Below, piece after piece: positions 7,713 to 32,574 of a stretch of 64,000 bases of DNA. The position numbers were made by a program, and so were the translations under genes. The notes under the pieces were generated by a model. The model was not told the DNA's origin. It saw only the letters and a list, made by a program, of their open reading frames with translations, and made no database searches. Positions within the stretch are counted from its first letter, which is position 1; each line of letters opens with the position of its first letter. Source of the stretch: an archaeon (GTDB taxonomy: Archaea; Nanobdellota; Nanobdellia; Woesearchaeales; GW2011-AR15); the NCBI GenBank assembly GCA_043801855.1, contig JAZDLQ010000017.1, forward strand, positions 90,625 to 154,624, in the 5' to 3' direction.

Positions 7713-7723
7713 GAGGATATAAT

Positions 7724-9109: not shown

Positions 9110-9110
9110 A

Positions 9111-10262: not shown

Positions 10263-10263
10263 A

Positions 10264-13862: not shown

Positions 13863-14612
13863 CTAATGATTGTGTGCATGCTTCAGCAGATGCTCTCTTT
13901 CATGCATTAAATAATGGGCGGCGTTTCCGAACGACTCTTGATTTTTCGAGGAGACTCTGATAATATTTGCTTTCCCATTGATATTCCTTAAATCCCTTAG
14001 ATATATTTTCTCGTTAAAATTTACATATTTTGCAAGATCAGATTTTGATATAACTATAATATTAGCATCCATGAATATGTAAGGATATTTTTTTGGCTTG
14101 TCAAATCCTTCAGTAGTGCTGCTGATGACTATATTTATGTGCTGCCCTATTTTTACTCCGGCAGGGCATACAAGATTGCCTACATTTTCTATTATTAGGT
14201 AATTTTTTCCTGAAAGGTCCATTTCCTGAATTGCTTGATTAATCATCATTGAATTGAGATGGCAGCCGCTGTGGGTGTTAATCTGATATGTGTAAATATT
14301 ACTTGCTTCAAGCCTTTTTTTGTCAATGTCAGATTCCAAATCTCCTTGTATTACAGCAATTTCAGCAGAAGGAATATGTTTGCTTATTCCTTCTATAAAG
14401 CTTGTTTTTCCGCAGCCGGGCGAGCCCATTAGGTTAATGCATAATATATTTTTTGCTTTCAGCCTGGATTTTATTTGATCTGAAAGAAAATCATTCATTT
14501 CTGTGACAGATTCATTGATTAAAAAGCTTTTTTCATTCTTAGAAACTTTTCTCACCTTTTTTTTTACATTATTTTTATGCTTTTTTTCTTCACATCCGCA
14601 TTCTTTGCACAT
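13863..14612 (-). CDS. hypB: Hydrogenase nickel-insertion GTPase HypB
   Basis: MCKECGC, GSPGCGKT, GCHL, ENVGNLVCPA, DKPKKYP; His-rich C-terminus. Confidence 0.96.
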   Translation of the reverse strand: MCKECGCEEKKHKNNVKKKVRKVSKNEKSFLINESVTEMNDFLSDQIKSRLKAKNILCINLMGSPGCGKTSFIEGISKHIPSAEIAVIQGDLESDIDKKRLEASNIYTYQINTHSGCHLNSMMINQAIQEMDLSGKNYLIIENVGNLVCPAGVKIGQHINIVISSTTEGFDKPKKYPYIFMDANIIVISKSDLAKYVNFNEKIYLRDLRNINGKANIIRVSSKNQESFGNAAHYLMHEREHLLKHAHNH

Positions 14613-14614
14613 AA

Positions 14615-14962
14615 TTATCCCTCTATGATTTTTTTTATTATAAAATTTCTTCCCTGAATTATCTTGACATTACCTGACTTGCACTCTTTGCAATAGACAA
14701 GTATTGGCTCATTGACAAGGTTTATCTTTTTGCATTCGTTGCATCTGATTTTGCCTTTTATCTCTTTAAATTGTAATTCTGTTTCTTTAAGTAAAGTTTC
14801 CTCTTTTTTCATTATGCCATAATAAAATACAATTGGTTCTTTCTTATAATTTGTAAGCATGCCAAGTTCAAGCATAATTTTTTTAGGTTTTTTTATTTTT
14901 TTTTCTTTACATTCTCTAATTATCTTTGTTACAAGCGCTTTAGTTATTGACAATTCATGCAT
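14615..14962 (-). CDS. hypA: Hydrogenase nickel chaperone HypA
   Basis: MHE start, CNEC and CKEC zinc motifs. Confidence 0.95.
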   Translation of the reverse strand: MHELSITKALVTKIIRECKEKKIKKPKKIMLELGMLTNYKKEPIVFYYGIMKKEETLLKETELQFKEIKGKIRCNECKKINLVNEPILVYCKECKSGNVKIIQGRNFIIKKIIEG

Positions 14963-14996
14963 TTTATTTTTCAAATTGTTTTTATATCAATTCTAT

Positions 14997-15974
14997 TTAG
15001 CATATTCTAGGAACAATTCTTCCGGTTGGCTTTGGAAGGATGCTTTTTCCAATGGCAGTATTTAAAATAACTTTTTTGCTATTGTCTATTTTGCCTATTA
15101 TTGCAGCGTACTTATTGTATTTTTGCAGAAGTTCAAGAATTTTTTTTGCATTCTCCTGCGATGCTACAACTATTGCTCTTCCCTCGCACGCAAGATTAAA
15201 TAAGTTAATGCCGAGCATCTCTGCAACTTTTTTAACCTGCGGCAATGCAGGAATTGAATCTTCATCTAATGATATGCCTACGTTATTTTGCTCGCAAATC
15301 TCATTTAGTGACGCTGCTATTCCTCCGCGTGTAGGGTCTTTTGCAATTTTTACATATTTTCTTATATCATTGAATTCCATAATTAATGGCTTTGAATCAG
15401 TTATCACATTTGTCTCGTAATCAAACCTTTTGCTTAGGAGTGCAATTGCATGCTCGCCTATTCCTCCGCTGATAATTACTGCATCGCCATTGTTTAATAC
15501 ATCTGAAAAAATTCTGTCTGATATTCCTACAGCTGCTGTGTTAATTATAATCTTATCGATTTTTCCCTTTGGCATAACTTTTGTGTCTCCTGTCACAATC
15601 GGCACATTATACCTGGCTGATAGCTCTTTTATAGTGTTGATAATAACTGATAGGTTTTCGGTCGAGAAACCCTCTTCAATCACTAAAGACAGCGCAATTC
15701 CTATTGGAATACCTCCCTTAACCAGTATGTCATTTACTGTTCCGCAAAATGCAAGATGCCCAATATTGCCGCCAGGAAAAAAAATTGGGTCAACAACATA
15801 AGAATCTGTTGTAAAAAATAATTTTTTTTTGTTTTCCAGTTCATATGTTGCAGAATCGCTGTCGCAGTTTTTCCAGTTGCTCCGAAATGAGAAGCCAAAT
15901 GAATTTATCAATTGGTCCATCTCGCTTCCTCCTGCTCCTTCTGCAAGTGTGATTACTTTTTTTTCTTCTTTCAT
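14997..15974 (-). CDS. hypE: HypE carbamoyl dehydratase
   Basis: TDSYVVDPIFFPGGNIG, GDTKV, DPTRGG, C-terminal PRIC. Confidence 0.97.
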   Translation of the reverse strand: MKEEKKVITLAEGAGGSEMDQLINSFGFSFRSNWKNCDSDSATYELENKKKLFFTTDSYVVDPIFFPGGNIGHLAFCGTVNDILVKGGIPIGIALSLVIEEGFSTENLSVIINTIKELSARYNVPIVTGDTKVMPKGKIDKIIINTAAVGISDRIFSDVLNNGDAVIISGGIGEHAIALLSKRFDYETNVITDSKPLIMEFNDIRKYVKIAKDPTRGGIAASLNEICEQNNVGISLDEDSIPALPQVKKVAEMLGINLFNLACEGRAIVVASQENAKKILELLQKYNKYAAIIGKIDNSKKVILNTAIGKSILPKPTGRIVPRIC

Positions 15975-15990
15975 CTTTTTTATTTAGTTC

Positions 15991-17019
15991 TCATTTTCCG
16001 TGCCTATAATAAATTGAGCATGTCCCTTCTTCTGATACCATGCATGCGCCTTGTGGATTACTTGGTGTGCAGACTTTTTTATAAAGAGGACATGATACAG
16101 GTTCAATTGTTCCCTTTAATATATCTCCACATCTGCATCCGGCGCTTTTTTTTGTGACAACTTTTGACAATATTTCTTTGTATTTAACTTTCGCATTCAA
16201 TTTATCATCTTTTACTTCAAGGCCGGAATTTTGTATTGTACCAAGGCCTCTCCAAACACTATCTGCAACATAAAATTTTTCAGCAAGAAGCTTTTGCGCA
16301 TTAACATTTCCATCTTCCTGGACAATTTCAGGATATGCATTTATTGTTTTTTTTCTCCCTTGAATGATTAATTCAAGAAGTGCGCTGATTCCCCTTAATA
16401 TTTTTTCAGGTGTGAATCCGCTTATCGCTGATGCGATATTTAACTTATCGTATGCCTTCCTGCCAATTATTGCAGAGACGTGGCCTGGCGATATGAATCC
16501 ATCAATTGCATCGTTTTCGCAAACAAGGGCAGATATAGCAGGCGGAACAAGCTTATGGACTGAATAAACACAAATGCCTTTGTTCAATAAATAGGCAGTC
16601 ATCGGAGCTGTTGTCTCAAATCCAACTCCAAAAAAAACAATATTTGGATACCTTTCAACAAGTGCTAACACTTCAGAAGCAGAATACACTTCAAAGACAT
16701 TTCCTTGCATTGCTTTTGCATCTTCAAGAGAATACTCACTTCCGGGAACACGCATCATGTCACCATACGTTGCAATAGGGATAGAGCTCATTGCAAGGCT
16801 TATCATACAGTCAATATCATGCTGGGAAGAAACACAGACAGGGCATCCTGGCCCGGATATAAGCCTTATATTTTTAGGGAGAATATCTCTTATTCCGTAT
16901 TTTACAATAACATTTGTATGGCCGCCGCATATTTCCATAATCGTAATATTTTTTTTTGCCTTTTTGGCAAGAATATTTATTTTTTCAATATGTTTTTTAA
17001 TAATAGCAGCGTCTTCCAT
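15991..17019 (-). CDS. hypD: HypD
   Basis: CGGHT, GPGCPVC, GFETT, PGHVS, CMVSEEGTC. Confidence 0.97.
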   Translation of the reverse strand: MEDAAIIKKHIEKINILAKKAKKNITIMEICGGHTNVIVKYGIRDILPKNIRLISGPGCPVCVSSQHDIDCMISLAMSSIPIATYGDMMRVPGSEYSLEDAKAMQGNVFEVYSASEVLALVERYPNIVFFGVGFETTAPMTAYLLNKGICVYSVHKLVPPAISALVCENDAIDGFISPGHVSAIIGRKAYDKLNIASAISGFTPEKILRGISALLELIIQGRKKTINAYPEIVQEDGNVNAQKLLAEKFYVADSVWRGLGTIQNSGLEVKDDKLNAKVKYKEILSKVVTKKSAGCRCGDILKGTIEPVSCPLYKKVCTPSNPQGACMVSEEGTCSIYYRHGK

Positions 17020-17020
17020 C

Positions 17021-17257
17021 TTATTTAAATTTGTTTTTTTTTATCCTCTCGATATCGTGCCTGATGATCTCAATTGACTCTTCTGCACTTTTTTTGTCAA
17101 GCTTTTCAATAGCAAATCCGGCATGGATAAGGATATAATCTCCGAGTTTTGGATTGTCTATTAATGATAAATTTATTTTTTTGGTGACACCGCCATAATC
17201 TACATTGGCAGTATCAGATTGAATGCTTATTATTTTTGCAGGTATTGCGTAGCACAT
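17021..17257 (-). CDS. hypC: HypC
   Basis: MCYAIPA start, LIHAGFAI. Confidence 0.96.
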   Translation of the reverse strand: MCYAIPAKIISIQSDTANVDYGGVTKKINLSLIDNPKLGDYILIHAGFAIEKLDKKSAEESIEIIRHDIERIKKNKFK

Positions 17258-17258
17258 A

Positions 17259-17729
17259 TTAGTTTCCGGATGAAGCTCCAAGTTTGATTATATTATTTAC
17301 TACATTATCTTTAATGTTTTCAAATTTTAACAATATCTCATCAGATAATTTGTTATAAAAAGGCTTTGTATCTTTTACATTAATTCCTATAAGGAATACT
17401 CCCTTAATATTCGGCTTGTATGCTTTTATTAGCTGTGCAGTTTCTTCAACACCAAAGTCGTGGATTGAGCCAATATTCATACTTGATTTTAGGTTTTCTG
17501 CTCTTATTACTTTAACAGTTCCTATTTTGCCTTTTTCTTTCATTGAGTCTACTATAATGACTGTATCGTTATCTTCGATATAAGAAATTATGTCAAATCC
17601 AAGAACACCTGCTTCCAAAAGTTCAAATCCAGTAAGCCGCTCGTCTTTTTCAAGCTCCGAATATAGCTTAGGCCCAATGCCATCATCTCCTCCAAAAGTG
17701 TTACCGACAAAAAAGACCTTAACAACCAT
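17259..17729 (-). CDS. Hydrogenase maturation endopeptidase (HybD/HycI family)
   Basis: GN..GDDGIG, IIVDS, SIHD. Confidence 0.9.
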   Translation of the reverse strand: MVVKVFFVGNTFGGDDGIGPKLYSELEKDERLTGFELLEAGVLGFDIISYIEDNDTVIIVDSMKEKGKIGTVKVIRAENLKSSMNIGSIHDFGVEETAQLIKAYKPNIKGVFLIGINVKDTKPFYNKLSDEILLKFENIKDNVVNNIIKLGASSGN

Positions 17730-17812
17730 ACTAAACCCAAAAAGGAATTAATGCTTAAATAAGCTTTGTTTTTAAGGAGTTAAAAAGCGCGCCAATAATT
17801 AATGCATAACTG

Positions 17813-18439
17813 CTAATTGCCAAGAGCTTTGCTTATCGCTTTTTTAAATCTGTCAAGAGATTTAAGCCCAAAAATTATTGCAAACTCTCCAACCAAAGAA
17901 TATTTTTTTACATTGAACTTGGTCTGGAGTATAAGCATATCTTCTGAAGCATAAGGAGAAATTCCTTTAGCAAGAAACCTAAAGACAAGCTCTTTTTTAT
18001 TAATCTGCACAAGCGGATCTGTTTGGATAAAGTTCATATTTAAGAAAGTTCCAAGCGCATTAATATAAGACTCAGATAAGCTAATCCCTATAGCCTTAAA
18101 TTTTTCTTCGCATTCAAGCGTAATTGTTTTTGTTGTGCCTATTGGGTTTTTTTCAATTAAATCAAGCAGCACAGTTGAAAATTTTCTGTCAAATACTGTA
18201 ATTATGCTTCCGAGAGCATCACCTTTCACTCTGAGAAAAACAGAAACAACAGGATCGTTACTCTGCTGCTTGTATTCATTGACAAGGTTTTTAGAGTCAA
18301 TTATTTTTATTTCGGTTAAGTTCATTTCGACCTTTTCATTGACCATCTGAGACAATCTTATTGCTGCGTTGCCTGAGCCGATATTTCCTACTTCTTTCAT
18401 TGCATCAATTTCAAAATCACTTAGCTTATTTTGGTCCAT
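17813..18439 (-). CDS. cheC: CheC-family protein (paralogue 1; second site degenerate)
   Basis: DAMKEVGNIGSGNAA; second ExxN site absent. Confidence 0.85.
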   Translation of the reverse strand: MDQNKLSDFEIDAMKEVGNIGSGNAAIRLSQMVNEKVEMNLTEIKIIDSKNLVNEYKQQSNDPVVSVFLRVKGDALGSIITVFDRKFSTVLLDLIEKNPIGTTKTITLECEEKFKAIGISLSESYINALGTFLNMNFIQTDPLVQINKKELVFRFLAKGISPYASEDMLILQTKFNVKKYSLVGEFAIIFGLKSLDRFKKAISKALGN

Positions 18440-18982
18440 TTATTCACTCCATGTTTTCATTTCATCTGCAATTTTTGATATTTCGGAAACCAGCAGCAGG
18501 TTTTCACTTCCTGTAAATACAATTACAGAGAACTTTTTTTTCTGGCTTTCGGTTTTAAGATATAACAGTGATTTCACTATTTTCTCAATAGAATTATAAT
18601 ATAATGCAATATCAATAATATCTATTGCAACAAAGCTTGGGCTGTATTTCAAAAAGATAGAATCAAGGCTTTCAATTATTCCGTCAAGGTCATTTGGATT
18701 CATAAGGTAGAATATGCTATCATCATCAGGCATTTCATCAGCTCTCACACAAACAGCGTCAATAAATGCAAGATTTGATGTGTCAATGCCTTTTGAGGCT
18801 ATTTTTTTTTTATCATTAAAAGATGGATTTCGAAAGTTAATTATCACACCGCTTGAAACTTTGCTAATAGCAGAAATCAGGCTTAAGTAACAATTAGTAA
18901 GCTGCGAAGGTTTTGCTTTCACTAAATAAAAACCAGGTGTTTCAGTGATATTTTTTATTAATTTATCCTCAAAACTTGTCAT
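18440..18982 (-). CDS. Degenerate RecA/KaiC-fold protein lacking Walker A (DUF835/DUF7504-like)
   Basis: FIDA, FVAID..ALYYN pattern; paralogous to 34628-35164. Confidence 0.6.
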   Translation of the reverse strand: MTSFEDKLIKNITETPGFYLVKAKPSQLTNCYLSLISAISKVSSGVIINFRNPSFNDKKKIASKGIDTSNLAFIDAVCVRADEMPDDDSIFYLMNPNDLDGIIESLDSIFLKYSPSFVAIDIIDIALYYNSIEKIVKSLLYLKTESQKKKFSVIVFTGSENLLLVSEISKIADEMKTWSE

Positions 18983-19082
18983 TGCGTTATTTCTATTTAT
19001 TTGTTACTATATAAATATTTTGACTTTAAAAATTTGTTTAATAAGATAATAAGAATTTGATAAAAAAATAAAAAATATTTTT

Positions 19083-20594
19083 TTATTGCGTAGGCTCAAT
19101 TACTATTTGCTTTCCCTTGTTTTTTCCAACAGAATGGATTGAGCAGGAAATGCACGGGTCAAATCCTCTTACTATGTGCGCAGCTTCAAGAATGCTGTCG
19201 CTTTTGCTTAATTTAGTTCCAATTAGCGCAGCTTCAATTGCAGAGTGATGCCCTTTTGAATCAATAGGAGACGCATTCCATGTTGTTGGGGTGATTATCT
19301 GGTATGATGTGACTTTGGAATCTTTGATATTGATCCAGTGACTAACCGCTCCCCTTGGGGCTTCAGCTAGTCCAACTCCAGAGCCATTTTTCACTTCTTC
19401 AAATGGGTAATAGAATGGCTTTTGAAGATCAATCTCAGAAACCCACTCAATTAATTTTGGCATGATTAATAAGATTTCATGCAGCCTGGCAATAGTTCTT
19501 GTGAATGTGTTTATCCCAAATGCGCCAACAAGGTCTTTTATTAACGGATCTTCATTAACAATCTGCCTTGCAAGAGGGCCGCATTCTACTGCGTGACCAA
19601 AATACCTGGGTGTTTTTATCCATGAATAAGCTCCATTTTTCTTAGGATGCGGTTTTGTCTTTCCGTTTAATGGATGTCTCCATTCATTTTCTGATTCATA
19701 GTACGATGAAGCCGTATCTTCAAAAATTAATTTGCTGTCAACTGGATGAAATATTCCTCCTTCGACATATCCTGGCTTAAAAAGATAGCTTCCGTTGCTG
19801 TTTTTGCCATATCCGAATGAAAGGAAATTATTAGGTGATCCTTCTCCATATTTATGAAGGCCGATGTCCTGTGCATACCTAATAAATACTCCAACATCAG
19901 AATCAGCAAAAGCTTTATTTTCCATAAGCTTTAGGAGGTCTTTAACTGTTTTTACTTTTTGCCAGTCTTCAATTGTTACTCCTCCCAGAATTTCCTGCTC
20001 GATAAATGCCTTTACTTCTTTAAGCATAGTATCTGTTTTTATCAGTTCGATGAATTTAGGTATGCTGCATACTCCACCTGGAACTGCATGCATTGGATGA
20101 GGGAATTTTCCGCCAAATGTTGCAACAACGCTGTGCAGAGGAATTCTTGCCTTGACTAAAACATCTTTTAAGTGAGGGCTTTTTAGCGGGTCAAATCTTT
20201 TTAAGACTTCTTTATACAATGGCTGGTTTTTATAAGCATCATTGACTAAATCAGGGCCCCACATAAAATAAAAATGTGTTGCATGGCTTACGCATATATT
20301 TGATCCAAGAACAACATCTCTGACAAGCTGCGCATTTCTTGGAATCTTAAAATTTGCTGCAGCTTCAATTGCAATAGCGCCTGCTGTTCCGTGCGAAACA
20401 GGGCATACTCCGCATGTTCTTTGAGACATTCTCATGGCGTCAAATGGCTTTTGGCCGATAAAAATATTTTCAAATCCTCTATATACAAAGCCAAGAGATT
20501 TTGCATTAGTAATTACGTTTTTGTCATCAACGCTTATTTCAATAGCCATGTCTCCTTCAATTCTGTTTAATGGGTCAATTGTTAATTTTTTCAT
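19083..20594 (-). CDS. [NiFe]-hydrogenase large subunit, group 2 (HupV/HoxC-like)
   Basis: PLNRIEGD, L1 RTCGVC, L2 DPCISCSIH followed by a 16-aa extension. Confidence 0.93.
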   Translation of the reverse strand: MKKLTIDPLNRIEGDMAIEISVDDKNVITNAKSLGFVYRGFENIFIGQKPFDAMRMSQRTCGVCPVSHGTAGAIAIEAAANFKIPRNAQLVRDVVLGSNICVSHATHFYFMWGPDLVNDAYKNQPLYKEVLKRFDPLKSPHLKDVLVKARIPLHSVVATFGGKFPHPMHAVPGGVCSIPKFIELIKTDTMLKEVKAFIEQEILGGVTIEDWQKVKTVKDLLKLMENKAFADSDVGVFIRYAQDIGLHKYGEGSPNNFLSFGYGKNSNGSYLFKPGYVEGGIFHPVDSKLIFEDTASSYYESENEWRHPLNGKTKPHPKKNGAYSWIKTPRYFGHAVECGPLARQIVNEDPLIKDLVGAFGINTFTRTIARLHEILLIMPKLIEWVSEIDLQKPFYYPFEEVKNGSGVGLAEAPRGAVSHWINIKDSKVTSYQIITPTTWNASPIDSKGHHSAIEAALIGTKLSKSDSILEAAHIVRGFDPCISCSIHSVGKNKGKQIVIEPTQ

Positions 20595-21484
20595 TGTGAG
20601 TCACCTCCGTAGAGGACTTTTTTCTTCGCTTTAACCATGTCTTCAACTTCCTTTGGAAGGCTTAGTGTTTCCTCACTAAATGGTGTCATTGTCACTGGAA
20701 ACCCAGGGTCACAGCAGCCAATGCATGGAGCGCCTGATCTTGTACAGGATGAAACACCGTTCCATAATCGTACATTGCAGTCTGCGTTTGTTGTTCTGCC
20801 TTTGCATCCAAGAGTTGCTGCGTAGCATCCAACTTCAGTATAATTCTTTGCCCAAAGTCCTCTTTCATGGAATTCGCAGTGCTTGCATCCTCTATGGACT
20901 TTCTCCTCAAAATAATCTTTTGGCCTGTTGTATTCATCAAGAACTACTGGCCTTCCAAGCCTAAACGACTGGATTGTATTAATGACCCAGTCAGGATGAG
21001 TTGGGCACCCAGGAATATTTATTACTGGAAACCCAAGGCCTGAAATATAATCTTTTCCAAGAAAGCCACCCTTTGTATGACCATGAAACTGCAGGCCAGT
21101 TGCTCCTGATTCATTAGGCGGAGCAGCAGGGATTCCTCCGAATGCTGCGCAGGTTCCGACTGCAATAGTTAAGTTTGATTTTGAAGCAAAATTTTTTACC
21201 ATATTTTTAACGTCTTCTCCTCCGAAAAAATCTCCAAACCCTTCTTTCATAGGAACACTTCCCTCAAATACAAATAAGTCAATCCTTATTTTTCCACCTA
21301 AACAGTCATTAAACAATTTTTTTGCTTCTGCTCCAAAAACAGGGCTAATTGTTGGGTGATACAATAAATTAATATTATTTCTCTTAAGAAAAGTCAGGAA
21401 ATCCGGTCTCTCTGCGTCAAATACAGACATTGAATCTCCGTCGCATGTCTGACCCTGCATCCAAATAAGATTTAGCTCTTGCAT
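20591..21484 (-). CDS. [NiFe]-hydrogenase small subunit, cytoplasmic (HupU/HoxB-like)
   Basis: No Tat signal; TCDGDSMS, GTCAAFGG, GCPTHP, VHRGC, LGCKG, DCNVRLWNG, CIGC. Confidence 0.93.
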   Translation of the reverse strand: MQELNLIWMQGQTCDGDSMSVFDAERPDFLTFLKRNNINLLYHPTISPVFGAEAKKLFNDCLGGKIRIDLFVFEGSVPMKEGFGDFFGGEDVKNMVKNFASKSNLTIAVGTCAAFGGIPAAPPNESGATGLQFHGHTKGGFLGKDYISGLGFPVINIPGCPTHPDWVINTIQSFRLGRPVVLDEYNRPKDYFEEKVHRGCKHCEFHERGLWAKNYTEVGCYAATLGCKGRTTNADCNVRLWNGVSSCTRSGAPCIGCCDPGFPVTMTPFSEETLSLPKEVEDMVKAKKKVLYGGDSQ

Positions 21485-22400: not shown

Positions 22401-23792
22401 ATGAAAATTAGGGATTTAATATTCACGATGTTTATTGTAAGTATAATTGTTAATTCTGCTATTATTGTTGCTTTTGCGTCAGGCAAAGTCAACCAGATTA
22501 GTGAAGTAACTTCTAAATCCAGTTCAGATACTTTAAAAAATAACGCAGCAAAAAGCTTAATTGATACGGCAATTGGACTTAAGGATTCGCTGGACAGCCA
22601 ATTAACAAACCATTACACTCTTGTAAAAACATGGGCAAGCAACCCTCTATTACAGCAGACTTCAAAAGAAGCGCAAAAATACTCAAAAGAAGCACTTTAT
22701 GAGATGTGGAGCGCGCAAAGCACAAGAGTATATGATGAAGGAGAGGCTACAGGAGACGGAAATCCTGACAATGATTTAAGTTCAACAGCATCAAAGTATT
22801 TAATAACACTTTCTACAATGACTGGAGTTTACCCTGAAATATTCACAACAGATAATAGAGGCTATGCTATTGCAGCTAATGTTGCAACAGGTGATTTTGA
22901 TCAGGGGCCAGATGACTGGAGAGTTTTTTTAAATGAAGCCGGACAACCTTATTTTAAGCAAAATAAACCTGGAGTTGACCAGGAGCCATGGTATTATGCA
23001 GCAAATCAGGCAGTTGACGGGTTCTATATAAGCAAAACTATTTATGATGAAAGCTCTGGTACTTGGGGATTGGAATTAGTCAGCCAGATGAGAGATCCTA
23101 CTAGTTTGGAATACCTTGGCCAGATAAAAGCAGTTTTTGATTTTAGCAAGTTTGTAGGCCAGCTTGTTAATGTAGAGGATCTTGCTGTTGATGAAATCCA
23201 GGTAATTGATGCAAGCGGCAAGGTAATTGCTGATTCAGACGGCAAAGCAGTATCAGGAGATCTTGCAACAATAGATTCAGCTTTTATGAGCGAGATTAAC
23301 AAAGGTAAAAATTCAGGCTACGTTGCCAGAGTAGATGAAGAAGGAAATAAAGTAATAACTGCTTATGCAAGGTCAAATGATAAAAATAAATATGTTGTTG
23401 CAGTATCTAAAAGAGAAAGTGATATTGATATGCCTATTAATAGTTTTGTTGACGGTTTGACCGGAAACATTAAAAAAGTTGGCAGTGAGTTGCAGATGAA
23501 TATAATAATAATTGCAGCAGTTGTTGGTCTTCTTACGCTATTAGTTGCATTTGTTGTAATAAATGCGCAAATAGTAGATCCTGTAAACAGGCTTTCAGAA
23601 GTAGCAGATAAATTAACAGATGGCGACTTTTCAGTAAGCATGCCGGAAATAAAAACCAGAAATGAGATTCAGAAATTCTCTGCGTTGACTGCGTTGTTAG
23701 TTTCGATTATTAAACAGGGCAGAGAAGGCAAGAAAGAAGAGCATAAAGAAGAGAAAAAAGAAGAACATAAAGAAGAGCATAAAAAGAAATAA
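22401..23792 (+). CDS. Membrane sensor: TM-dCache-like-TM-HAMP, no signalling domain
   Basis: EIFTTDNRG, PWY, VIDASGKVIADS Cache-like motifs; HAMP PVNRLSEVADKLTDGDFS..NEIQKF; ends in KEEHKEE repeats. Confidence 0.8.
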   Translation: MKIRDLIFTMFIVSIIVNSAIIVAFASGKVNQISEVTSKSSSDTLKNNAAKSLIDTAIGLKDSLDSQLTNHYTLVKTWASNPLLQQTSKEAQKYSKEALYEMWSAQSTRVYDEGEATGDGNPDNDLSSTASKYLITLSTMTGVYPEIFTTDNRGYAIAANVATGDFDQGPDDWRVFLNEAGQPYFKQNKPGVDQEPWYYAANQAVDGFYISKTIYDESSGTWGLELVSQMRDPTSLEYLGQIKAVFDFSKFVGQLVNVEDLAVDEIQVIDASGKVIADSDGKAVSGDLATIDSAFMSEINKGKNSGYVARVDEEGNKVITAYARSNDKNKYVVAVSKRESDIDMPINSFVDGLTGNIKKVGSELQMNIIIIAAVVGLLTLLVAFVVINAQIVDPVNRLSEVADKLTDGDFSVSMPEIKTRNEIQKFSALTALLVSIIKQGREGKKEEHKEEKKEEHKEEHKKK

Positions 23793-23875
23793 TTAACACT
23801 AATTTTTTCTTTTTTTCTTTCGATACATTTATATACTTGCTTCTCAGTTAATTTTATAAAAAAGAGGTGTGGGAT

Positions 23876-26281
23876 ATGAGGCTAAATGACATTAGCATTA
23901 GATGGCAGTTACTGATTATCTGTGTTCTATTGGTCAGCGTTCCGTCGATTATACTTGGTGTGATAAGCTATAATACTATAAAAGCTGAAACTGAAATTCA
24001 GGTTGAGCAAAACCTGATTCTGCAAAATAAAATTATCATGAATAATGTTAGGGATTATTATGATCTGTCAATGAAAAATCTCGAATCTAATCTTGCAACA
24101 GCTGAAGTTATTGCAACAAAAGGTGTCCTTACACCCAGAAACTATGCTCTTGATTATCAACATAAGTTAAAAGTGAATGCTGTTAACCAGATAACAAAAC
24201 AGTCAAAGCAATTAGATATACCTACAATGACGGTTAATGATGATTCTGCATATCATGATTTTATCTATGTAGATAGAATTAAAGAAGCAGTTGGAGGGAC
24301 AGCAACAATTTTCCAGCTTATCCCTGACGGATTATTCAGGATATCTACAAATGTCATTAATGAAGACGGATCGCGTGCTGTTGATACTTATATTCCTACT
24401 GATTCTCCTGTATACAAATCTATAATTTCCGGTCAGACTTACTATGGAAATGCTTTTGTTGTAACTGCCTGGTATGTTGCTGCATATACACCTATCCGGG
24501 ATTCTTCTGGTCAAGTTATCGGTGCATTATATGTAGGTATTCCTGAAAAAGATTTTAAAGAACCAGTCCTTCAGTCACTATCTGAAATAACTGTCGGTAA
24601 AACCGGATACTTATGGATACTAAATGAAAAAGGCGAATACGTGCTTTCTCTTAGCAGAAAAAGGGATGGCGAAAGCATATATGATTCACAGGATTCAAAT
24701 GGAAGAAAGTTTGTTCAGGAATGGCTCGCAAAGGCGCCTTCCATGAAGCATGGAGAAGCAGTAATTGATTATTATCCTTGGAAAAATACAGGAGAGACAC
24801 ATGAAAGATTAAAAATTGCGTCATATTCTTATTTTCCTGAATGGAAATGGACAGTCGGCTCAAGCATTTATATGGATGATTATTATGATAATCTTAATGC
24901 AATAAAAAACCAGACTATTCTGACAGTAATTTTCTTTATTGTAATTGGCTCATTTGCTGCTTATCTTGTTGCATTGAATATCAGAAAAATGCTTAAGCCT
25001 CTATCTGACGTTATGAAAAAGCTTGCTGATGGCGATTTGTCGGCAAGAGTTGATATGCATAATGTAGGAAAAAATGAGTTTGGAGAGCTTGCTTGCGGAA
25101 TTAATGCAATGCTTGATAATACCGCAACACCAATTAAAGAATTAAGCTTAGTTGCAAAATCAATTACAGATGGCGACCTTAATGTAAAAGTTGAAGTCAA
25201 TGCAAAGGGCGACATGGTAGTTCTTGTACAGGCAATTAGGACAATGGTTGAAAGCCTAAGAGATTTTGTAGTTTTAGTTTCAAAAAACGCAAATATGGCA
25301 GCAACATCTGCTGAAGAGCTTTCAGCATCGGCTGAAGAAGTAAATGCCTCAACAGAGCAGGTGAACGCAACAATTCAGGAATTATCTAAAGGAGGGCAAA
25401 ATCTGGCGACAATTGCTGCCAATACTAAACAAATAGTTGAATCAGTCGGAATGGCGGCAAGGCTTGTTTCAGAAAGCAGCAAAAAGGCAACAGAAGGTGC
25501 AACAAAAGCCGGAAAGATTGCACAGGAAGGAACTGATGCTGGAAAAAAAGCAGATCTTGTGATGAAAAATATTTTAGAAAGCACTCAGGCAACAACTAAA
25601 AATATTAGCCAGCTTGATGATAAAAGCAAAGAAATTGGAAAAATTATCGATGTCATAAATAGCATTAGCGAGCAGACAAACCTTCTTGCGCTAAATGCGG
25701 CAATAGAAGCAGCAAGGGCAGGAGATGCAGGAAGAGGATTTGCAGTTGTTGCAGATGAAGTAAGAAAGCTTGCTGAAGAGTCAAAGAAAGCAACAGCCCA
25801 GATAGCTGAGATGATAACTTCAATACAGAGCGGAACAAAAGAAAGTGTTGAAGATATGTCCAAAGCAAGTAAGGTTGTTCAGGAAGGAACTGCTGTTGTT
25901 ATGTCTGCTCTTGCTTCGCTTGAAGAAATTTCCATAATTTCAAAAGATGTGGGAATGCAGGTTCTCGAGGTTAATGCAGCAGCTGAACAGGCATCAGTTG
26001 GAATTGATCAGGTAAATAAATCAATCCATGAGGTAAGCGCAGTTGCAGAGGAGAGCGCTGCTGCAACAGAGGAAGTATCAGCATCAATGGAAGAGACTGG
26101 AAGCTCAATGCAGCAGGTTAGTTCAGAAGCGCAAAATCTTGCAAAGGGGGCTGATGAGCTTCGGCATTTATTATTAAGGTTTAAGGTTAATTCAGATGAA
26201 GAGATTCCTATGCCAAAACCGTTCCCAGCTAAGAATGCCTTCCCTGACGATAGTCATAAGCTGAAGAAAGATAAGCATTAG
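23876..26281 (+). CDS. Methyl-accepting chemotaxis protein (Cache_3-Cache_2-like sensor, two HAMP domains)
   Basis: [23 protein letters not shown]; [38 protein letters not shown]; GAGGTG RBS. Confidence 0.96.
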
Positions 26282-26307
26282 CAAAAAAAAACTTATGCCT
26301 GTGAAAA

Positions 26308-26799
26308 ATGCCTGAAAACAAAGAAAAATCACTTGGAATCGAAAAGCAGTTAGTAATCTTTAAGCTTGGTAAAGAAGAATTTGGCGTTGACATCAATCAA
26401 GTTAGGGAAATTATTAAGATGGAAGCGATAACCAAAATCCCTAACACTGAAGAATACATTCAGGGAGTAATTAACCTAAGAGGTAAGATAATTGTAATTG
26501 TCGAATTATCAAAAAAGCTTAACATGATTTCAGGTGAAAAAAACAAGGATACCAGGATAATTGTAACAGAAATTGGTGATAGCACTATTGGAATGATTGT
26601 TGATAATTGCAACGAGGTCCTAAGATTATCAAGCAGCCAGATTGAGGCTGCTCCTGAGATTATTACTAAAAAAATAAACTCAGAATATATTGTAGGAGTT
26701 GGTGTCATTAAAGAGAGGCTTATTATCCTGCTTAATCTAGGAAAAGTGCTAGGCGATAGTGACATGCAAAAACTTGAAGCGCTAAAAGAGACCGTCTAA
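26308..26799 (+). CDS. cheW: CheW coupling protein
   Basis: EEFGVDINQVREII, GVINLRGKII. Confidence 0.95.
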   Translation: MPENKEKSLGIEKQLVIFKLGKEEFGVDINQVREIIKMEAITKIPNTEEYIQGVINLRGKIIVIVELSKKLNMISGEKNKDTRIIVTEIGDSTIGMIVDNCNEVLRLSSSQIEAAPEIITKKINSEYIVGVGVIKERLIILLNLGKVLGDSDMQKLEALKETV

Positions 26800-26816
26800 G
26801 CTTTGTTAAGCCAGAT

Positions 26817-27443
26817 TTATTTTTTTGCTTCAGACAAAATAATATTTATAGATTCTGTATTAAAATTTACTATCAAATCAGAATATAATGGCACTTCACA
26901 ATTATCTGCGTATAATACTGTATGTATGTTGATTAGATAAGTTGTTGACTCATCGAAGTTCTTGAAGAAAACTTTTTCTATAAATTCAGATGAGTTCACC
27001 TTGAAAAAAGTGGGTGGTGACAAGTCCATCCTAAACTTAACCATTTTTGAAATTGCAGAGATATATGAGCTTATGATTATGTTTGAATACTCTTTTAAGA
27101 TGTCTATGCTGTAACTATCCAGCTCCTTATCTGAATTTTTCTCTTGAGGATTTAGGCAATTAACAATGCTGCGCGATGTTTCTTCACCCAACAGATTGAA
27201 TAAACAGCCACTGATATTTCCTGAAATTTTTTCAAACACAGTTATTATTTGCTGCTCCCCGCCGACATGTGTGAGAATTTTTTCTTTTTCAATAAGGCTT
27301 ATATCTGTAATTTTCACTAGAATATCTTTGTTTATTAGTTTACCAAGCGCTCTAGAGGATTTGCCAAGACCAATATTTGTTAATTCCTTTATAATATCAA
27401 TATCGAATTCACTTAATTTTAGCTCTTTTACAATGTTTGCCAT
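26817..27443 (-). CDS. cheC: CheC-family protein (paralogue 2, antisense to the cluster)
   Basis: DIIKELTNIG and DILKEYSNII sites. Confidence 0.85.
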   Translation of the reverse strand: MANIVKELKLSEFDIDIIKELTNIGLGKSSRALGKLINKDILVKITDISLIEKEKILTHVGGEQQIITVFEKISGNISGCLFNLLGEETSRSIVNCLNPQEKNSDKELDSYSIDILKEYSNIIISSYISAISKMVKFRMDLSPPTFFKVNSSEFIEKVFFKNFDESTTYLINIHTVLYADNCEVPLYSDLIVNFNTESINIILSEAKK

Positions 27444-27575
27444 ATTATTTTTTCATTTATGATAAGTATAAATATCTATCTTTTTTAAGATATTGATTGA
27501 ATTTTCAAATAATTTTCAATATAAAAATTTATAAACTGCAGCTACATTTACCAGATTAATAAATGAGGTGATCAG

Positions 27576-27941
27576 ATGAGTAAGAAAGTAATGATAGTTG
27601 AAGATTCAAATCTTATGGTTTCTGTCATAACAAATTTCATAAAAAAATCAGGCATGGATATAAACATTGTAGTTGCCCATTCAGGAGAAGAATCGATTGA
27701 GCTTTATCAAAAAGACAGGCCAAACCTTGTTTTTATGGATATAAAGATGCCCGGAATGGATGGAATAACTGCTCTTGAAAATATTAAGAAAATAGATAAT
27801 TATGCTAAAGTTGTGATGTGTACTTCATTAAAGGACCCTGACAGCGAGGAGCGATCTAAAAAGTGCGGCTGCGTCGGTTATATAATGAAGCCATTTGGCA
27901 GCAAAGATATTATTGATGCGCTTGAAAAGAACCTGAGGTGA
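27576..27941 (+). CDS. cheY: Stand-alone response regulator (CheY-like 1)
   Basis: VED, MDIKMP, CTS, KPF; GAGGTGA RBS. Confidence 0.88.
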   Translation: MSKKVMIVEDSNLMVSVITNFIKKSGMDINIVVAHSGEESIELYQKDRPNLVFMDIKMPGMDGITALENIKKIDNYAKVVMCTSLKDPDSEERSKKCGCVGYIMKPFGSKDIIDALEKNLR

Positions 27942-27949
27942 AGTTAAGC

Positions 27950-28312
27950 ATGGCCCTAAAAGTATTAATAGTTGATGATTCACTTTTTATGAGAACTATG
28001 CTTAAGAAGATAATCACAGAAGCTGGTGCAGAAATTGTTGCTGAAGCAGGTGACGGCGCAGAAGCTCTTATAAAATATAATGAAGTAAAGCCTGACCTCG
28101 TGTTTCTTGATGTTGTGATGCCAAATGTTGATGGAATTCAGGCTCTGAAAAATATTAAAGCCTCAAATCCGGATTCTACAGTTATCATGTGCACATCAAC
28201 CGGCCAGGATATGATAGTCAAAGAAGCCGTTGACTCAGGCGCTGCAGACTTTGTGGTTAAGCCATTCTCAAAAGAAGATATTCAAGGAATAATCCAAAAA
28301 TACCAGGGATGA
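27950..28312 (+). CDS. cheY: Stand-alone response regulator (CheY-like 2)
   Basis: VDDSLFMR, LDVVMP, GAADFVVKPF. Confidence 0.92.
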   Translation: MALKVLIVDDSLFMRTMLKKIITEAGAEIVAEAGDGAEALIKYNEVKPDLVFLDVVMPNVDGIQALKNIKASNPDSTVIMCTSTGQDMIVKEAVDSGAADFVVKPFSKEDIQGIIQKYQG

Positions 28313-29367
28313 ATTTCCCTACTAGGAATATTATGATAAATGTTTTAGTAGTTGATGATTCTGCATTTATGAGAAAAGTAATTTGTGATATTTTGACCGT
28401 TGATAATGAAGTAAAAATTGTCGGTGTTGCAAACAATGGTGCCGGCGCTCTTAAAAAAATTACTGAGCTTCATCCTGATGTTGTTACTATAGACCTTCAT
28501 CTTCCTGATATTGATGGGACTGATTTGATTAAGCAGATTATGAAAGAAAATCCTGTTCCTATTGTTGTTGTAAGTGCATTTACAAAAAATGACTCTGCGC
28601 AGATAATAGAAGCTCTGCAGTCAGGAGCAGTTGACTTTGTTAAGAAGCCATCCGGTGAAATATCACTTAATATTAGGGAGATTGGAGCAGATATTATTAA
28701 TAAAGTAAAGGCAGCTTTCATATCGAAACTTAAGACAGGGTCGCAGGAAAAGAAACATGTCATTGTAAGAAAATTTAACCCGTCTAGAAAAAAAATTGTT
28801 GTGATTGGCGCTTCAGCCGGTGGGCCGCCTACACTAGAGGCGCTTTTAACTTTGCTTCCTAAAAATATTCCTGTGCCTATCCTTATTGTCCAACATATGC
28901 CGCCAGGTGATTTTACAGCAACTCTTGCAAATAGGCTTGACTCAATTTGTGAAATTCGAGTAAGAGAAGCAAAAGAAGGAGATGAGTTGCAAAACGGAGT
29001 TGCACTAATTGCTCCAGGGGGCTTTCATATGGAATTAAAGACAGATAATCCTCTATTTGAAGGAAAAATTGCGCTTAATACCGAGCCCAGAGAGCTTGGA
29101 GTAAGGCCTTGTGTAAATCGGCTTTTTGCTTCAGCTGCAAAAATATTTCAGGAAAACACTATTGGAATAGTCCTCACAGGAATGGGTTCTGACGGCAAAA
29201 ATGGTGCCGGTGAAATTAAAAAATATAACGGAACAATTCTGGCTGAATCTGAAGAATCATGCGTCATTTTTGGCATGCCAAAAGAAGTAATTAAAGCAGG
29301 CCTAGCTGATGAGATTGTGCCTATAGATAAAATGGCAGTAGCGCTAGTGCAGCTTGTTGAAGTGTAA
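28309..29367 (+). CDS. cheB: CheB methylesterase (REC + esterase)
   Basis: VDDSAFMR, GASAGG, VQHMP, LTGMGSDG; true start may be 28333. Confidence 0.96.
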   Translation: MNFPTRNIMINVLVVDDSAFMRKVICDILTVDNEVKIVGVANNGAGALKKITELHPDVVTIDLHLPDIDGTDLIKQIMKENPVPIVVVSAFTKNDSAQIIEALQSGAVDFVKKPSGEISLNIREIGADIINKVKAAFISKLKTGSQEKKHVIVRKFNPSRKKIVVIGASAGGPPTLEALLTLLPKNIPVPILIVQHMPPGDFTATLANRLDSICEIRVREAKEGDELQNGVALIAPGGFHMELKTDNPLFEGKIALNTEPRELGVRPCVNRLFASAAKIFQENTIGIVLTGMGSDGKNGAGEIKKYNGTILAESEESCVIFGMPKEVIKAGLADEIVPIDKMAVALVQLVEV

Positions 29368-29370
29368 AAA

Positions 29371-31332
29371 ATGGATATGTCTGGCTATCTTAATGAATTT
29401 GTATCAGAAGCTAAAGATCATTTGGATGAATTAAACAATGCTATACTTGATCTGGAAAAAGAGCCGGAAAATAAAGATATTATTAACAGGATGTTTCGCT
29501 CAAGCCATACTCTAAAGGGAAATGGGGCAGCAATGGGTTTTTTAAAATTTGCAGAGCTTGCACATTCTATCGAAGATGTGATGTCAAAAATAAGAGACGG
29601 AAAAATTGCTGCTGATAGTGGCATCATTAATATTATCCTTCAGGGATGCGATATAATGGAAAAAAGCCTTGAAAATATTGCACTTGGCAAGGAAGATACA
29701 ACTGAATCTGAAAACCTAATTGAAGAGTTTAAAAACATTACCAATATAAAACCTGAAAAAAGCACAGCGCAAAATGTCTGTGCAAAGACGATTCTTACAG
29801 AAATTGAAAAAAAAGAGATAGATGATGAAACTGCCAAAGGAAATAATGTATTTAGGATTGTCCTTGTTTTTGAAAAAAATAACAATCTAAAGAGCGCAAA
29901 GGCAAGCGTATTGCTAAGAGAATTACGCAAAAATGGCAAAATTATCAAAACAACGCCAGATGCAGAAAAAATTAGTAAAGGCGAAATAGGTTTAGAGCTG
30001 GAAATAATTGTTTGCACAAATATGCAAAAAGAAAGCTTAATATCAGCTATTGATAAAGTATCTGGAATATCAAGCATTTTTGTTTTATCACTGGATGAAG
30101 AATATGTAAAAAGCACCCAGCAAAAAAACGAGGAAAAAGAGGCCGCTAAAGCGCAAATTATTAACGAGCACAAGAATTATGCAGTAGGTAAAGTTCAAAA
30201 CATTAAGGTGAGCATGGAAAAACTTGACAAACTTATGAATCTTGTTGGCGAACTTCTAATAAGCAACATCAGGCTTCAGGATATTGCCCATAAGAAGGAT
30301 TATGACCGGTTAAAGCTTGTTTTGAATGATGTAGATAGGCTTGTTCTTGACCTGCAATCAGATATAATGGAAGTGAGGATGGTGCCGATAGGAAGCATTT
30401 TCAATAGATTCCCAAGAATGGTTAGGGATATTGCAAATCATGAGAAAAAAAATGTGAATCTGATTATTGAAGGAGAAGATATTGAGTTTGACAGAACTGT
30501 TTTGGATAAAATAGGCGATCCTCTTGTTCATCTTCTGAGAAATTCAGTCGACCATGGCATAGAGCTGCCTGATATTAGGTTAAAAAAGGGAAAGCCGGAA
30601 GAAGGAATAATTAAGCTTATTGCAAAAAGGGAGAAGAGCAAAGCAATAATTGAAGTATCAGATGACGGCGATGGAATAGACCCAAAAGCAGTCGCAGAAA
30701 CCTGTATAAGAAAGGGTACTTTGACCAAAGAGCAGGTTGAAAAAATGAGTGATAAAGAACTTCAGATGCAGATTTTTGTTCCTGGAACAACCACCAGTAA
30801 AGTGATTACAGAACTATCCGGCAGGGGCGTTGGCATGGACACTGTAAAAAGCATGATTACTAGTCTGAGAGGAACTGTCCGGCTAAGCAGTACTGTTGGA
30901 ATAGGCACTAGTGTTACAATTGAGCTTCCTTTAACTGTTGCAATAGTTACAGCTCTACTGGTTGAAGTGGGCGGCGATTTATATGCAATTCCACTATCAA
31001 ATGTCGACCAAACTGTTGATATTAAATCTGAAGATATTAAAACAGGCATAGGCCATGATGTTTTTTTGCTGAGAGGAAAAGTAATTCCTTTGTTTTGGCT
31101 AGATGAGTTACTTAGATATGGCAATAAAAAAGTAAGCAAAAAAGTAACTGTTATAATTGTAAATAAAGAGGGTGAGGAATGCGGTTTTGCAGTTGACTCA
31201 ATATTTTCAAAGCAGCAAGTATTAATTAAGTCTTTTTCAGATACGCTAAAAAGTGTTACATCGTTTTCAGGTGCAACTATTCTGGGTGACGGAAAAGTTG
31301 CGCTAATCCTTGATGTGAACTCGTTAATATAA
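29371..31332 (+). CDS. cheA: CheA histidine kinase
   Basis: HPt HTLKG, P2 domain, HLLRNSVDHGIE, SGRGVGMD, C-terminal CheW domain. Confidence 0.97.
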   Translation: MDMSGYLNEFVSEAKDHLDELNNAILDLEKEPENKDIINRMFRSSHTLKGNGAAMGFLKFAELAHSIEDVMSKIRDGKIAADSGIINIILQGCDIMEKSLENIALGKEDTTESENLIEEFKNITNIKPEKSTAQNVCAKTILTEIEKKEIDDETAKGNNVFRIVLVFEKNNNLKSAKASVLLRELRKNGKIIKTTPDAEKISKGEIGLELEIIVCTNMQKESLISAIDKVSGISSIFVLSLDEEYVKSTQQKNEEKEAAKAQIINEHKNYAVGKVQNIKVSMEKLDKLMNLVGELLISNIRLQDIAHKKDYDRLKLVLNDVDRLVLDLQSDIMEVRMVPIGSIFNRFPRMVRDIANHEKKNVNLIIEGEDIEFDRTVLDKIGDPLVHLLRNSVDHGIELPDIRLKKGKPEEGIIKLIAKREKSKAIIEVSDDGDGIDPKAVAETCIRKGTLTKEQVEKMSDKELQMQIFVPGTTTSKVITELSGRGVGMDTVKSMITSLRGTVRLSSTVGIGTSVTIELPLTVAIVTALLVEVGGDLYAIPLSNVDQTVDIKSEDIKTGIGHDVFLLRGKVIPLFWLDELLRYGNKKVSKKVTVIIVNKEGEECGFAVDSIFSKQQVLIKSFSDTLKSVTSFSGATILGDGKVALILDVNSLI

Positions 31333-31349
31333 TGAGGTGTTATTATAAA

Positions 31350-31964
31350 ATGGATGGTGTGAAGCTTACAGAAATGGAGCAGGATGCGCTAAGGGAGTGC
31401 GCAAATGTAGGCATTGGAAATGCTGCTACATCACTTTCAATATTGCTAAAAAAGAGAATTAATATAAAAATCCCTGAAGTGAAATTTATTCCAATTGAGA
31501 AGTTTTCTCTTGAAATAGGAGGGCCTGAGACAGTTGTTTCAGGAATATATCTTACTGTCCAGGGTGATCTGCAGGGAGAGGTAATATTTATCTTTCCTAA
31601 AAATGATGCGCTTGAGCTTGTCTGCCTTCTCCTGGGAAACGCACAAACAGAATTGACTCCGGAACTGTCAGAATCCGGCTTCAAGGAAATGTCAAATATT
31701 GTTACAGGCTCTTACCTAAACGCGCTTGCAAATATGCTTGACCTTAAAATTCTTCCTTCAATACCGCACACAGCAACAGATATGGCTGGTGCATTGATTG
31801 ATTTTCTCTTAAGTAAAGTTGCTCTGTATTCAGATAATATCTTAGCAATTAAAACAGAAATATATATAGATGAACATAGTATTACAGGAACCTTTATTAT
31901 AATATTTTCAATTGAGAGCTTAAATAAAATTATGGATATGTTGCATGATAAATATGGCGTATGA
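31350..31964 (+). CDS. cheC: CheC phosphatase (paralogue 3)
   Basis: DALRECANVG and FKEMSNIV sites; start uncertain (31332/31350). Confidence 0.92.
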   Translation: MDGVKLTEMEQDALRECANVGIGNAATSLSILLKKRINIKIPEVKFIPIEKFSLEIGGPETVVSGIYLTVQGDLQGEVIFIFPKNDALELVCLLLGNAQTELTPELSESGFKEMSNIVTGSYLNALANMLDLKILPSIPHTATDMAGALIDFLLSKVALYSDNILAIKTEIYIDEHSITGTFIIIFSIESLNKIMDMLHDKYGV

Positions 31965-32568: not shown

Positions 32569-32574
32569 AGTAAA

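Follow-up and report, generated by a model that had tools for sequence, protein, structure and literature searches.

A conserved pairing of half-site CheC-like proteins with inactivated KaiC-like proteins in Woesearchaeales and other archaea and its possible role in archaeal phospho-signalling

The stretch of archaeal DNA considered here, 64,000 nucleotides in length and referred to as the window, covers positions 90,625 to 154,624 of contig JAZDLQ010000017.1 (assembly GCA_043801855.1; G000:C18:90625-154624 in our labelling). It belongs to a Woesearchaeales genome, G000, assembled to 2.25 Mb in 111 contigs and 88.8% complete, and close homologues carry the label Candidatus Woesearchaeota. The window holds two copies of a gene pair in which a protein of the CheC family adjoins a small protein with a KaiC/RecA fold that lacks the Walker A motif, termed here an inactivated KaiC-like protein (iKaiC); genes are named by their lower coordinate. 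Pair 1, on the reverse strand, consists of the iKaiC gene 18440 (18440..18982, 180 aa) as its upstream member and the CheC-like gene 17813 (17813..18439, 208 aa) as its downstream member, with the iKaiC stop codon TAA followed immediately by the ATG of the CheC-like gene (18442/18439). Pair 2, on the forward strand, consists of the CheC-like gene 33954 (33954..34631, 225 aa), which is the last gene on the side of the che operon, and the iKaiC gene 34628 (34628..35164, 178 aa), where the stop of the former and the start of the latter share a 4-nt ATGA overlap at 34628-34631. Two types are distinguished, type A with the order iKaiC then CheC and type B with the order CheC then iKaiC.

CheC proper possesses two active sites of the form D/S-x3-E-x2-N, one in each pseudo-symmetric half, and the first D-x3-E-x2-N site is catalytic in CheC, CheX, and FliY. 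A genome-wide search with a hidden Markov model (HMM) identifies exactly five CheC genes in G000, every one inside the window; besides 17813 and 33954, these are three canonical genes at 26817-27443 on the reverse strand and at 31332-31964 and 31945-32568 on the forward strand, assigned by HMM and Pfam. When the five paralogues are aligned, all of them retain the first site, while the second E..N is intact in the three canonical copies and replaced by A..I in 17813 and by K..S in 33954, which agrees with an earlier note on this DNA that had singled out these two as having lost the second site. The residues at the D/S, E, and N positions of the two sites read DEN / EAI in 17813 and DEN / EKS in 33954. 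Each of the two proteins carries one Pfam CheC motif, exceeding the gathering cut-off of 22 bits for the 38-residue PF04509 model (25.4 bits for 17813, 35.2 bits for 33954). The NF041093 equivalog of CheC aligns with 17813 over its full length (E 4.4e-23), with scores for 17813 and 33954 of 82 and 88 bits that do not reach the cut-off of 250. Judged by motifs and profiles, both proteins belong to the CheC-like family and stand outside CheC proper as defined by its two sites. These half-site proteins are exactly the two window paralogues that adjoin an iKaiC of about 180 aa.

The two iKaiC proteins, which are 24% identical to each other, were examined by structure prediction and profile comparison. 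An AlphaFold2 model of 18440, built from a 22-sequence family alignment, reaches a pLDDT of 93.3, and its top Foldseek matches include KaiC (E 1.2e-5), the KaiC-like protein PH0284 (TMq 0.71), FlaH/ArlH (4yds, TMq 0.60), and Elongator Elp456. Against PDB sequences, the family profile likewise recovers KaiC (E 3.4e-7) and FlaH (E 1.8e-3). The Walker A motif, searched as the pattern [AG]x4GK[ST], is absent from all aligned family members (0/22) and occurs in 1 of 63 short iKaiC open reading frames (ORFs); 45 of the 46 true KaiC ORFs at these loci possess it, the KaiC ATPase at 38522 among them. The earlier note's description of the partners as KaiC-fold genes of about 180 aa without Walker A is thus upheld. 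Neither 18440 nor 34628 matches PF06745 (KaiC) at E 0.1 or better; 34628 scores 24.1 bits against DUF7504 (PF24336, gathering cut-off 27), and 18440 scores 20.9 bits against DUF835 (cut-off 33.1) and 19.3 bits against DUF7090 (cut-off 27), while relatives in the same alignment exceed Pfam cut-offs, for example with 52.9, 40.1, and 37.9 bits. The ESM Atlas neighbours of 34628 are archaeal KaiC/DUF7504 clusters at a structural TM of 0.85-0.92. Given the fold match, the missing Walker A, and the DUF7504 neighbours, both small partners are inactivated KaiC-like proteins, probably of the DUF7504/DUF835 type, and they are predicted to be unable to bind ATP. Of the four family members that our HMM detects in G000, two are those of the window, and the remaining pair of paralogues lies some 28-33 kb farther upstream on this contig (G000:C18:57223-62936, locus L071). 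After one of these upstream paralogues come a 101-aa gene and then a 236-aa KaiC ATPase. The second is arranged tail to tail with the gene of a PAS/GAF protein, before which stand a receiver and a HAMP histidine kinase.

Related DNA was surveyed in three ways. A set of 61 related genomes was searched with 18440 and with the CheC family, and their che loci were then retrieved; 52 loci from named metagenome-assembled genomes (MAGs) were collected with a type B profile, and a metagenome scan for type A added two contigs, the only loci that it yielded; and CheC loci were drawn from a 401-genome sample of the order. The relatives came from these genome and profile searches, as a word-based homologue search with 18440 was too insensitive and returned the query alone. 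A combined iKaiC and CheC-like profile matched 2,755 cluster representatives at E <=1e-3, some of them CheC-only. The surveyed DNA as a whole contains 94 distinct CheC-family ORFs, of which a gene is counted as linked when it is fused to iKaiC or directly adjoins it on the same strand with a gap of at most 150 bp. As a pair or a fusion, 23 distinct linked CheC genes come from 19 genomes and two metagenome contigs, which bears out the co-occurrence across archaea that the earlier note had asked about. The genomes belong to Woesearchaeota, other Nanoarchaeota, Altiarchaeota, Hadesarchaea, and one unclassified archaeon; the pair orthologues are 17-69% identical across four phyla, and those of 33954 show an identical layout in 16 other genomes.

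The loss of the second site follows the linkage. Among the 23 linked ORFs, the second E-x2-N is lost in 20, kept in 2, and not evaluable in 1; among the 71 unlinked ORFs, it is kept in 60, lost in 10, and not evaluable in 1. Expressed over evaluable genes, the loss affects 20/22 iKaiC-linked genes versus 10/70 other CheC genes. The glutamate of the first site is retained by every evaluable linked gene, and the first site reads DEN in 16 of the 23 linked proteins; of the two linked genes that keep the second site, one, from a Hadesarchaeon, has lost the first instead.

Single-gene fusions have formed in both orders. The order iKaiC-CheC is found in P0002 (in G005), P0003, P0004 (in G359), and one protein of G420, all of about 400 aa and 42% identical to each other, and the reverse order CheC-iKaiC in P0008. 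In P0021, a CheX-like domain that retains the second site only is fused to iKaiC, and P0144 is a fusion of a receiver (REC) domain to iKaiC. The pairing is beyond chance, because of its conservation, the fusions, and the contrast of 20/22 with 10/70. Conserved adjacency, translational coupling, and fusions in both orders argue that the CheC-like protein and iKaiC act as one functional unit, and the fusions further suggest that the two associate physically. A complex prediction for 17813 with 18440 gave a score of 0.01, the mark being 0.32, and was weighed neither for nor against association. Two further proteins bear on the range of architectures. A 387-aa CheC-like protein with sites DEN / IRQ, encoded at 2660-3823 of locus L147 (G211:C31) near a KaiC ATPase, may have a very divergent iKaiC fused on as its C-terminal half; and P0005 (637 aa), a distant match to the fusion query, combines a CheW domain and two CheC-like modules in one protein.

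The two pair types correspond to separate groups in a quick maximum likelihood tree of 103 iKaiC domains, which was midpoint rooted, retains all rows, and carries only SH-aLRT (approximate likelihood ratio test) support. There, 18440 falls on a long stem in a type A clade with a support of 100, together with two unfused metagenome copies (L124, L125) and three iKaiC-CheC fusions. The protein 34628 belongs to a type B group of 18 rows with a support of 85, in which a CheC-like gene precedes iKaiC in 15 of 18. Since 18440 and 34628 lie in separate clades, the window's two pairs represent distinct lineages of old standing, and neither arose as a recent copy of the other.

The genes downstream of pair 2 are central to its interpretation. 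The KaiC ATPase at 38522..40936 on the forward strand (804 aa) has an intact C-terminal KaiC domain (PF06745, 155 bits, residues 567-800) with the Walker A sequence GGPGSGKT near residue 590; DUF5752 also matches, at 42.7 bits, and the N-terminal part contains three copies of a short DUF5752-matching motif (…GKNDF.AW…) separated by Pro/Gln-rich linkers. Directly before it, at 37996..38517 on the same strand, lies a 173-aa winged-helix (wHTH) protein with a C-terminal alpha/beta domain; its AlphaFold2 model (pLDDT 87.5) comprises an N-terminal winged helix and a small alpha/beta domain, with weak Foldseek matches of the MarR/ArsR type (E ~1e-3). Of 17 type B loci, 11 have a KaiC ATPase downstream of the pair and 9 carry a 37996 homologue between iKaiC and the ATPase, the usual arrangement in Woesearchaeota; the link to the intact ATPase at 38522 that had been proposed from the sequence is thereby supported. 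Across the 52 loci recovered with the type B profile, a true KaiC ATPase is found within 2.5 kb in 31, an adjacent CheC-like gene in 12, and an adjacent stand-alone REC in 6, while the iKaiC domain lies inside a long protein in 14, and none of these partners is present in 10.

Genes for putative surface proteins accompany the module. Between pair 2 and the wHTH/KaiC genes, the window carries a gene at 35223..37733 (forward) whose 836-aa product is rich in Cys, has a hydrophobic N-terminus, and contains thrombospondin type 3 repeats (TSP_3, 44 bits; NF047638). In most other genomes the wHTH gene directly follows iKaiC, and in G359 an unrelated 927-aa protein occupies the equivalent place. Beyond the ATPase, on the same strand, follow a 473-aa protein without a Pfam family (40954..42375), which has a hydrophobic N-terminal segment and, by eye, long low-complexity helix-like regions, and a 712-aa protein, also without a Pfam family (42377..44515), with a homologue downstream of the module in G002. 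Weakly similar relatives of the 473-aa protein (23% identity, E 1e-6) are encoded downstream of the KaiC gene in G324, G311, G190, and G325. The series continues with a giant surface protein of 3640 aa (44518..55440, forward) that has Big_7, CARDB, and MG2-like domains by Pfam and is 30% identical over 659 aa (E 7e-74) to a 2549-aa protein of G311. Genes of this giant kind adjoin the module in G000, G311, G016, G190, and G325.

Type IV pilus genes are found beside the module in two other genomes. In G118 (locus L170, G118:C4, 2875-17131), one strand encodes in succession REC, CheC, iKaiC, a 161-aa protein, a KaiC ATPase, a 1504-aa protein, five small proteins, T2SSE, and two T2SSF proteins, and this run looks like a chemotaxis-style module heading a type IV pilus operon. 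In G359 (locus L167, G359:C4, 794-6004), one run of same-strand genes comprises a 387-aa coiled-coil protein, wHTH-like in an N-terminal segment, and the type A iKaiC-CheC fusion, directly followed by a T2SSE ATPase of the PilB3 type (PilB3_C) and a T2SSF gene; type A may in this way have a connection to pili. Together with the giant surface-protein genes, these loci support the tie to a surface structure that the earlier note had offered.

Upstream of pair 2, the che cluster extends over 22401..33937 on the forward strand and encodes, by Pfam, a Cache/HAMP protein, a methyl-accepting chemotaxis protein, CheW, CheC (on the reverse strand), two CheY proteins (27576 and 27938), CheB, CheA, two further CheC proteins, CheD, and CheR; pair 2 follows directly at the end of this operon. 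Pair 1 is surrounded by a [NiFe] hydrogenase/hyp cluster on the reverse strand (13863..21484, by Pfam), in the order hydrogenase small and large subunits, pair 1, HycI, HypC, HypD, HypE, HypA, and HypB. The pair shares the strand of its two neighbours, the large-subunit gene and the HycI protease gene, from which gaps of 83 and 100 bp separate it. This position looks like a local insertion, because the other type A loci lack a hydrogenase context. A hydrogenase-specific role of pair 1 was considered and ruled out, as hydrogenase genes occur in 0/5 of the other type A loci with context. Farther away, at 6138-12340, the window contains restriction-modification genes encoding an Eco57I/N6-type methylase, a BsuBI/PstI-type endonuclease, two proteins without assignment, and a C5 cytosine methylase.

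The distribution of archaellum genes bears on what the pair might control. CheF is the archaeal adaptor between phosphorylated CheY (CheY-P) and the archaellum switch ArlCDE. In the 88.8%-complete G000 assembly, CheF (PF04283) has no match, with positive controls in three archaea, and archaellin (PF01917) has none in the assembly or the window, in accordance with the earlier note, which had seen no cheF or archaellum genes in the window and had called for a genome-wide search. CheF is likewise found in 0/61 Woesearchaeales relatives and in 0/10 further pair-bearing genomes. The 61 relatives include three with a che operon and archaellin but no pair, so the suggestion that the pair replaces CheF is not supported as a specific claim: even where che genes and archaellin occur together in this order, no CheF is detected, and its absence is therefore not specific to the pair. 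The three are G001, of the same genus as G000, in which archaellin genes stand beside the che operon (G001:C3, ~150-183 kb, L053) and no pair is adjacent, and G038 and G049. The adaptor that connects CheY to the archaellum in Woesearchaeales would not be a Pfam CheF, or at most a very divergent one.

Archaellin occurs in 12/61 relatives and in 65/401 genomes of the order sample. That sample includes 31 CheC-positive genomes, of which 28 were examined (all except G237, G369, and G416); archaellin is present in 1/11 of those with a pair or fusion (G118) versus 10/17 of those without. These are raw counts given without a statistical test, since related genomes are non-independent. Four of the pair-bearers (G190, G256, G324, and G420) count as CheC-positive through the pair alone, and without them the figure becomes 1/7. 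Over all pair-bearing genomes it is 1/19, a count that combines the pair-bearers of the order sample with G005, G016, and six genomes of the 52-locus set that lie outside that sample (G062, G066-G070).

With the genes, motifs, and neighbourhoods in place, the reading we favour, at a probability of about one half, is that the pair is an adaptor responsive to phosphorylated CheY or REC proteins, feeding a KaiC ATPase hub that controls surface structures. CheY-P binding, the direction of the signal, and its target are inferred. Under this reading, the CheC-like subunit would keep one site for docking, and possibly dephosphorylating, CheY-P or REC-P, as the retained first D-x3-E-x2-N suggests continued binding of phospho-CheY or of a different phospho-receiver. 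The second, pseudo-symmetric site would have been given up, freeing that half for another use, possibly contact with iKaiC. Since iKaiC is predicted not to bind ATP and the commonest neighbour of its family is a KaiC ATPase, it most likely serves as a docking or regulatory subunit, docking on the true ATPase or co-assembling with it. For pair 2, CheY-P generated by CheA would bind the CheC-like/iKaiC complex, and the complex so occupied would alter how the 804-aa ATPase at 38522 assembles or how active it is. Acting with the winged-helix protein 37996, the ATPase would in turn govern the adjacent genes for surface proteins, or the proteins themselves. A chemosensory or two-component pathway would in this way acquire a non-archaellum output through the module. 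Pair 1, of type A and without fixed neighbours, may work in trans on the same or another ATPase.

Several observations weigh against this reading. In all type A loci with context (6/6), no KaiC ATPase is nearby, and the type A neighbourhoods vary, comprising the hydrogenase operon in the window, housekeeping genes in two loci, and a pilus ATPase in one. No KaiC ATPase lies within the retrieved stretch in 6/17 type B loci, which include all four from Altiarchaeota, Hadesarchaea, and the unclassified archaeon. The linked CheC of G118 has both sites intact, in a genome that combines the pair with archaellins. The archaellin rate of 1/11 among pair-bearers does not differ from the base rate of the order, 65/401, so that what archaellin can tell lies solely in the comparison with che-positive genomes that lack the pair. 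A CheW domain is absent from four of five tested pair-bearing genomes, namely the four that are CheC-positive through the pair alone, and in one CheW-less genome a classical histidine kinase and receivers lie upstream of the pair; the module is therefore not che-specific. Of the earlier view of the pair as a chemosensory output, the functional unit stands and the strictly chemosensory character does not. The surveyed relatives are mostly incomplete MAGs whose kinship makes them non-independent, and the direction of signalling could be the reverse.

Such reverse wiring is the best of the alternatives, though we consider it unlikely. According to it, iKaiC reads the state of the KaiC ATPase and toggles the single phosphatase site of the CheC-like protein, thereby setting the level of CheY-P or REC-P, so that the pair is a regulated signal terminator. 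The retention of the presumed catalytic first site in most linked proteins (DEN in 16/23) is what this would lead one to expect, and type B pairs do lie among the adaptation genes CheD and CheR, in G016 between other genes and CheD-CheR; a precedent exists in Bacillus subtilis, where CheC is regulated by its partner CheD. An extra phosphatase would, however, be redundant with the canonical two-site CheC encoded in the same operons, pair-bearing genomes without any CheW domain exist, and the giant surface-protein and pilus genes that recur downstream point to an output.

Less probable still is a role as a pilus-motor adaptor, in which an ArlH/FlaH-like iKaiC docks on a T2SSE ATPase of the PilB/ArlI type and the CheC-like protein brings CheY-P to it, steering a type IV pilus in the way that CheF and ArlCDE steer the archaellum. 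FlaH is among the best structural matches of iKaiC (4yds) and also appears in the profile search, the same-strand runs of G359 and G118 join the module to T2SSE and T2SSF genes, and the G000 genome encodes five T2SSE proteins. Against this, no T2SSE gene was found near either window pair, T2SSE homologues stand beside the pair or module in two genomes only across all retrieved loci, and the recurrent immediate neighbour is the KaiC ATPase, in G118 too. Finally, the idea that the half-site CheC and the P-loop-less KaiC are degenerating duplicates adjacent by chance, which could appeal to the catalytic motifs missing from both proteins and to the very long branch of type A, is highly improbable and contradicted by the conservation data, namely intact frames, coupled junctions, a high-confidence AlphaFold2 model, divergent orthologues in four phyla, fusions in both orders kept at 42% identity, and two pairs that fall in two distinct conserved clades.

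The favoured reading, an adaptor to a KaiC ATPase hub, can be set beside several known systems. It resembles CheF in that the pair would carry CheY-P to an archaeal output machine, and differs from it in lacking any sequence relation (no PF04283 match) and in occurring in genomes without archaellin. Bacterial chemosensory pathways with alternative functions are represented by Wsp, Frz/Dif, and Pil-Chp; as in these, the proposed output of the Che-type pathway is surface behaviour or gene expression and not a rotary swimming motor, although the output proteins differ, and no archaeal counterpart of such pathways was described in the literature searched. With the CheY-P phosphatases CheC, CheX, and FliY (PF04509, PF13690, NF041093), the half-site proteins share a full-length alignment to the CheC fold and the first D-x3-E-x2-N site, whereas the second site is lost in 20/22 linked genes, the partner is iKaiC in place of CheD or the switch complex, and the window's NF041093 scores are far below the cut-off. 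Like iKaiC, ArlH/FlaH, the regulator of ArlI, is a single-domain KaiC-like protein of about 200 aa with a matching structure, and it partners a larger ATPase. ArlH binds ATP through its Walker A motif, which its function needs, according to the passages covered of PMC10117864. The window's iKaiC proteins, in contrast, have no Walker A and no arlI, arlJ, or archaellin context.

The closest relatives of the proposed module are the REC-iKaiC regulators and the KaiC hubs. KaiC signal transduction hubs of archaea were reportedly proposed by Makarova, Galperin, and Koonin in 2017 (mBio). In the passages covered of Galperin et al. 2018 (PMC5847659), REC-iKaiC and REC-DUF835 response-regulator architectures are given, and the partners of iKaiC are REC, PAS, and HalOD1, with no CheC among them. 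In common with these regulators, the window pair couples an inactivated KaiC-like domain to a phospho-signal input in association with true KaiC ATPases, and its iKaiC family also pairs with stand-alone REC and fuses to REC; it differs in its input partner, which has the CheC fold where theirs is a receiver domain. The parts are thus of known kinds, namely the CheC/CheX/FliY fold, iKaiC as a receiver partner, and the KaiC ATPase hub. CheC-iKaiC coupling, the fusions, and the placement between che or two-component genes and KaiC or surface genes were not found in the literature searched, of which parts were covered (PMC5847659, PMC4858521, PMC10117864, PMC13705601, PMC11606122, and PMC13747009) and which excluded the 2017 KaiC-hub paper and supplements, so that an earlier mention is possible. 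The pairing is thus a genuine and conserved variant in the wiring of archaeal phospho-signalling, one that this literature does not describe.

Many archaea without an archaellum possess che operons, and stand-alone P-loop-less KaiC-like proteins of the DUF7504/DUF835 type are very common in archaea, with a role that has only been guessed. A conserved and sometimes fused CheC-like/iKaiC unit connects bacterial-type phospho-signalling with the archaeal KaiC hub in a way that is concrete enough to be tested, and it points to DPANN surface proteins and pili as the regulated output. As the proteins of the pair are small and soluble, their binding and phosphatase activity could be assayed without growing the organism. 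More tentatively, and with the odds leaning against so specific a role, the pair may be the output adaptor so far missing from a hitherto unrecognised class of chemosensory and two-component pathways in archaea, which would govern not swimming but host attachment in episymbiotic DPANN and related archaea; there, the pair would read phospho-CheY and gate a KaiC ATPase responsible for deploying or regulating giant adhesin-like surface proteins or pili used in adhesion.

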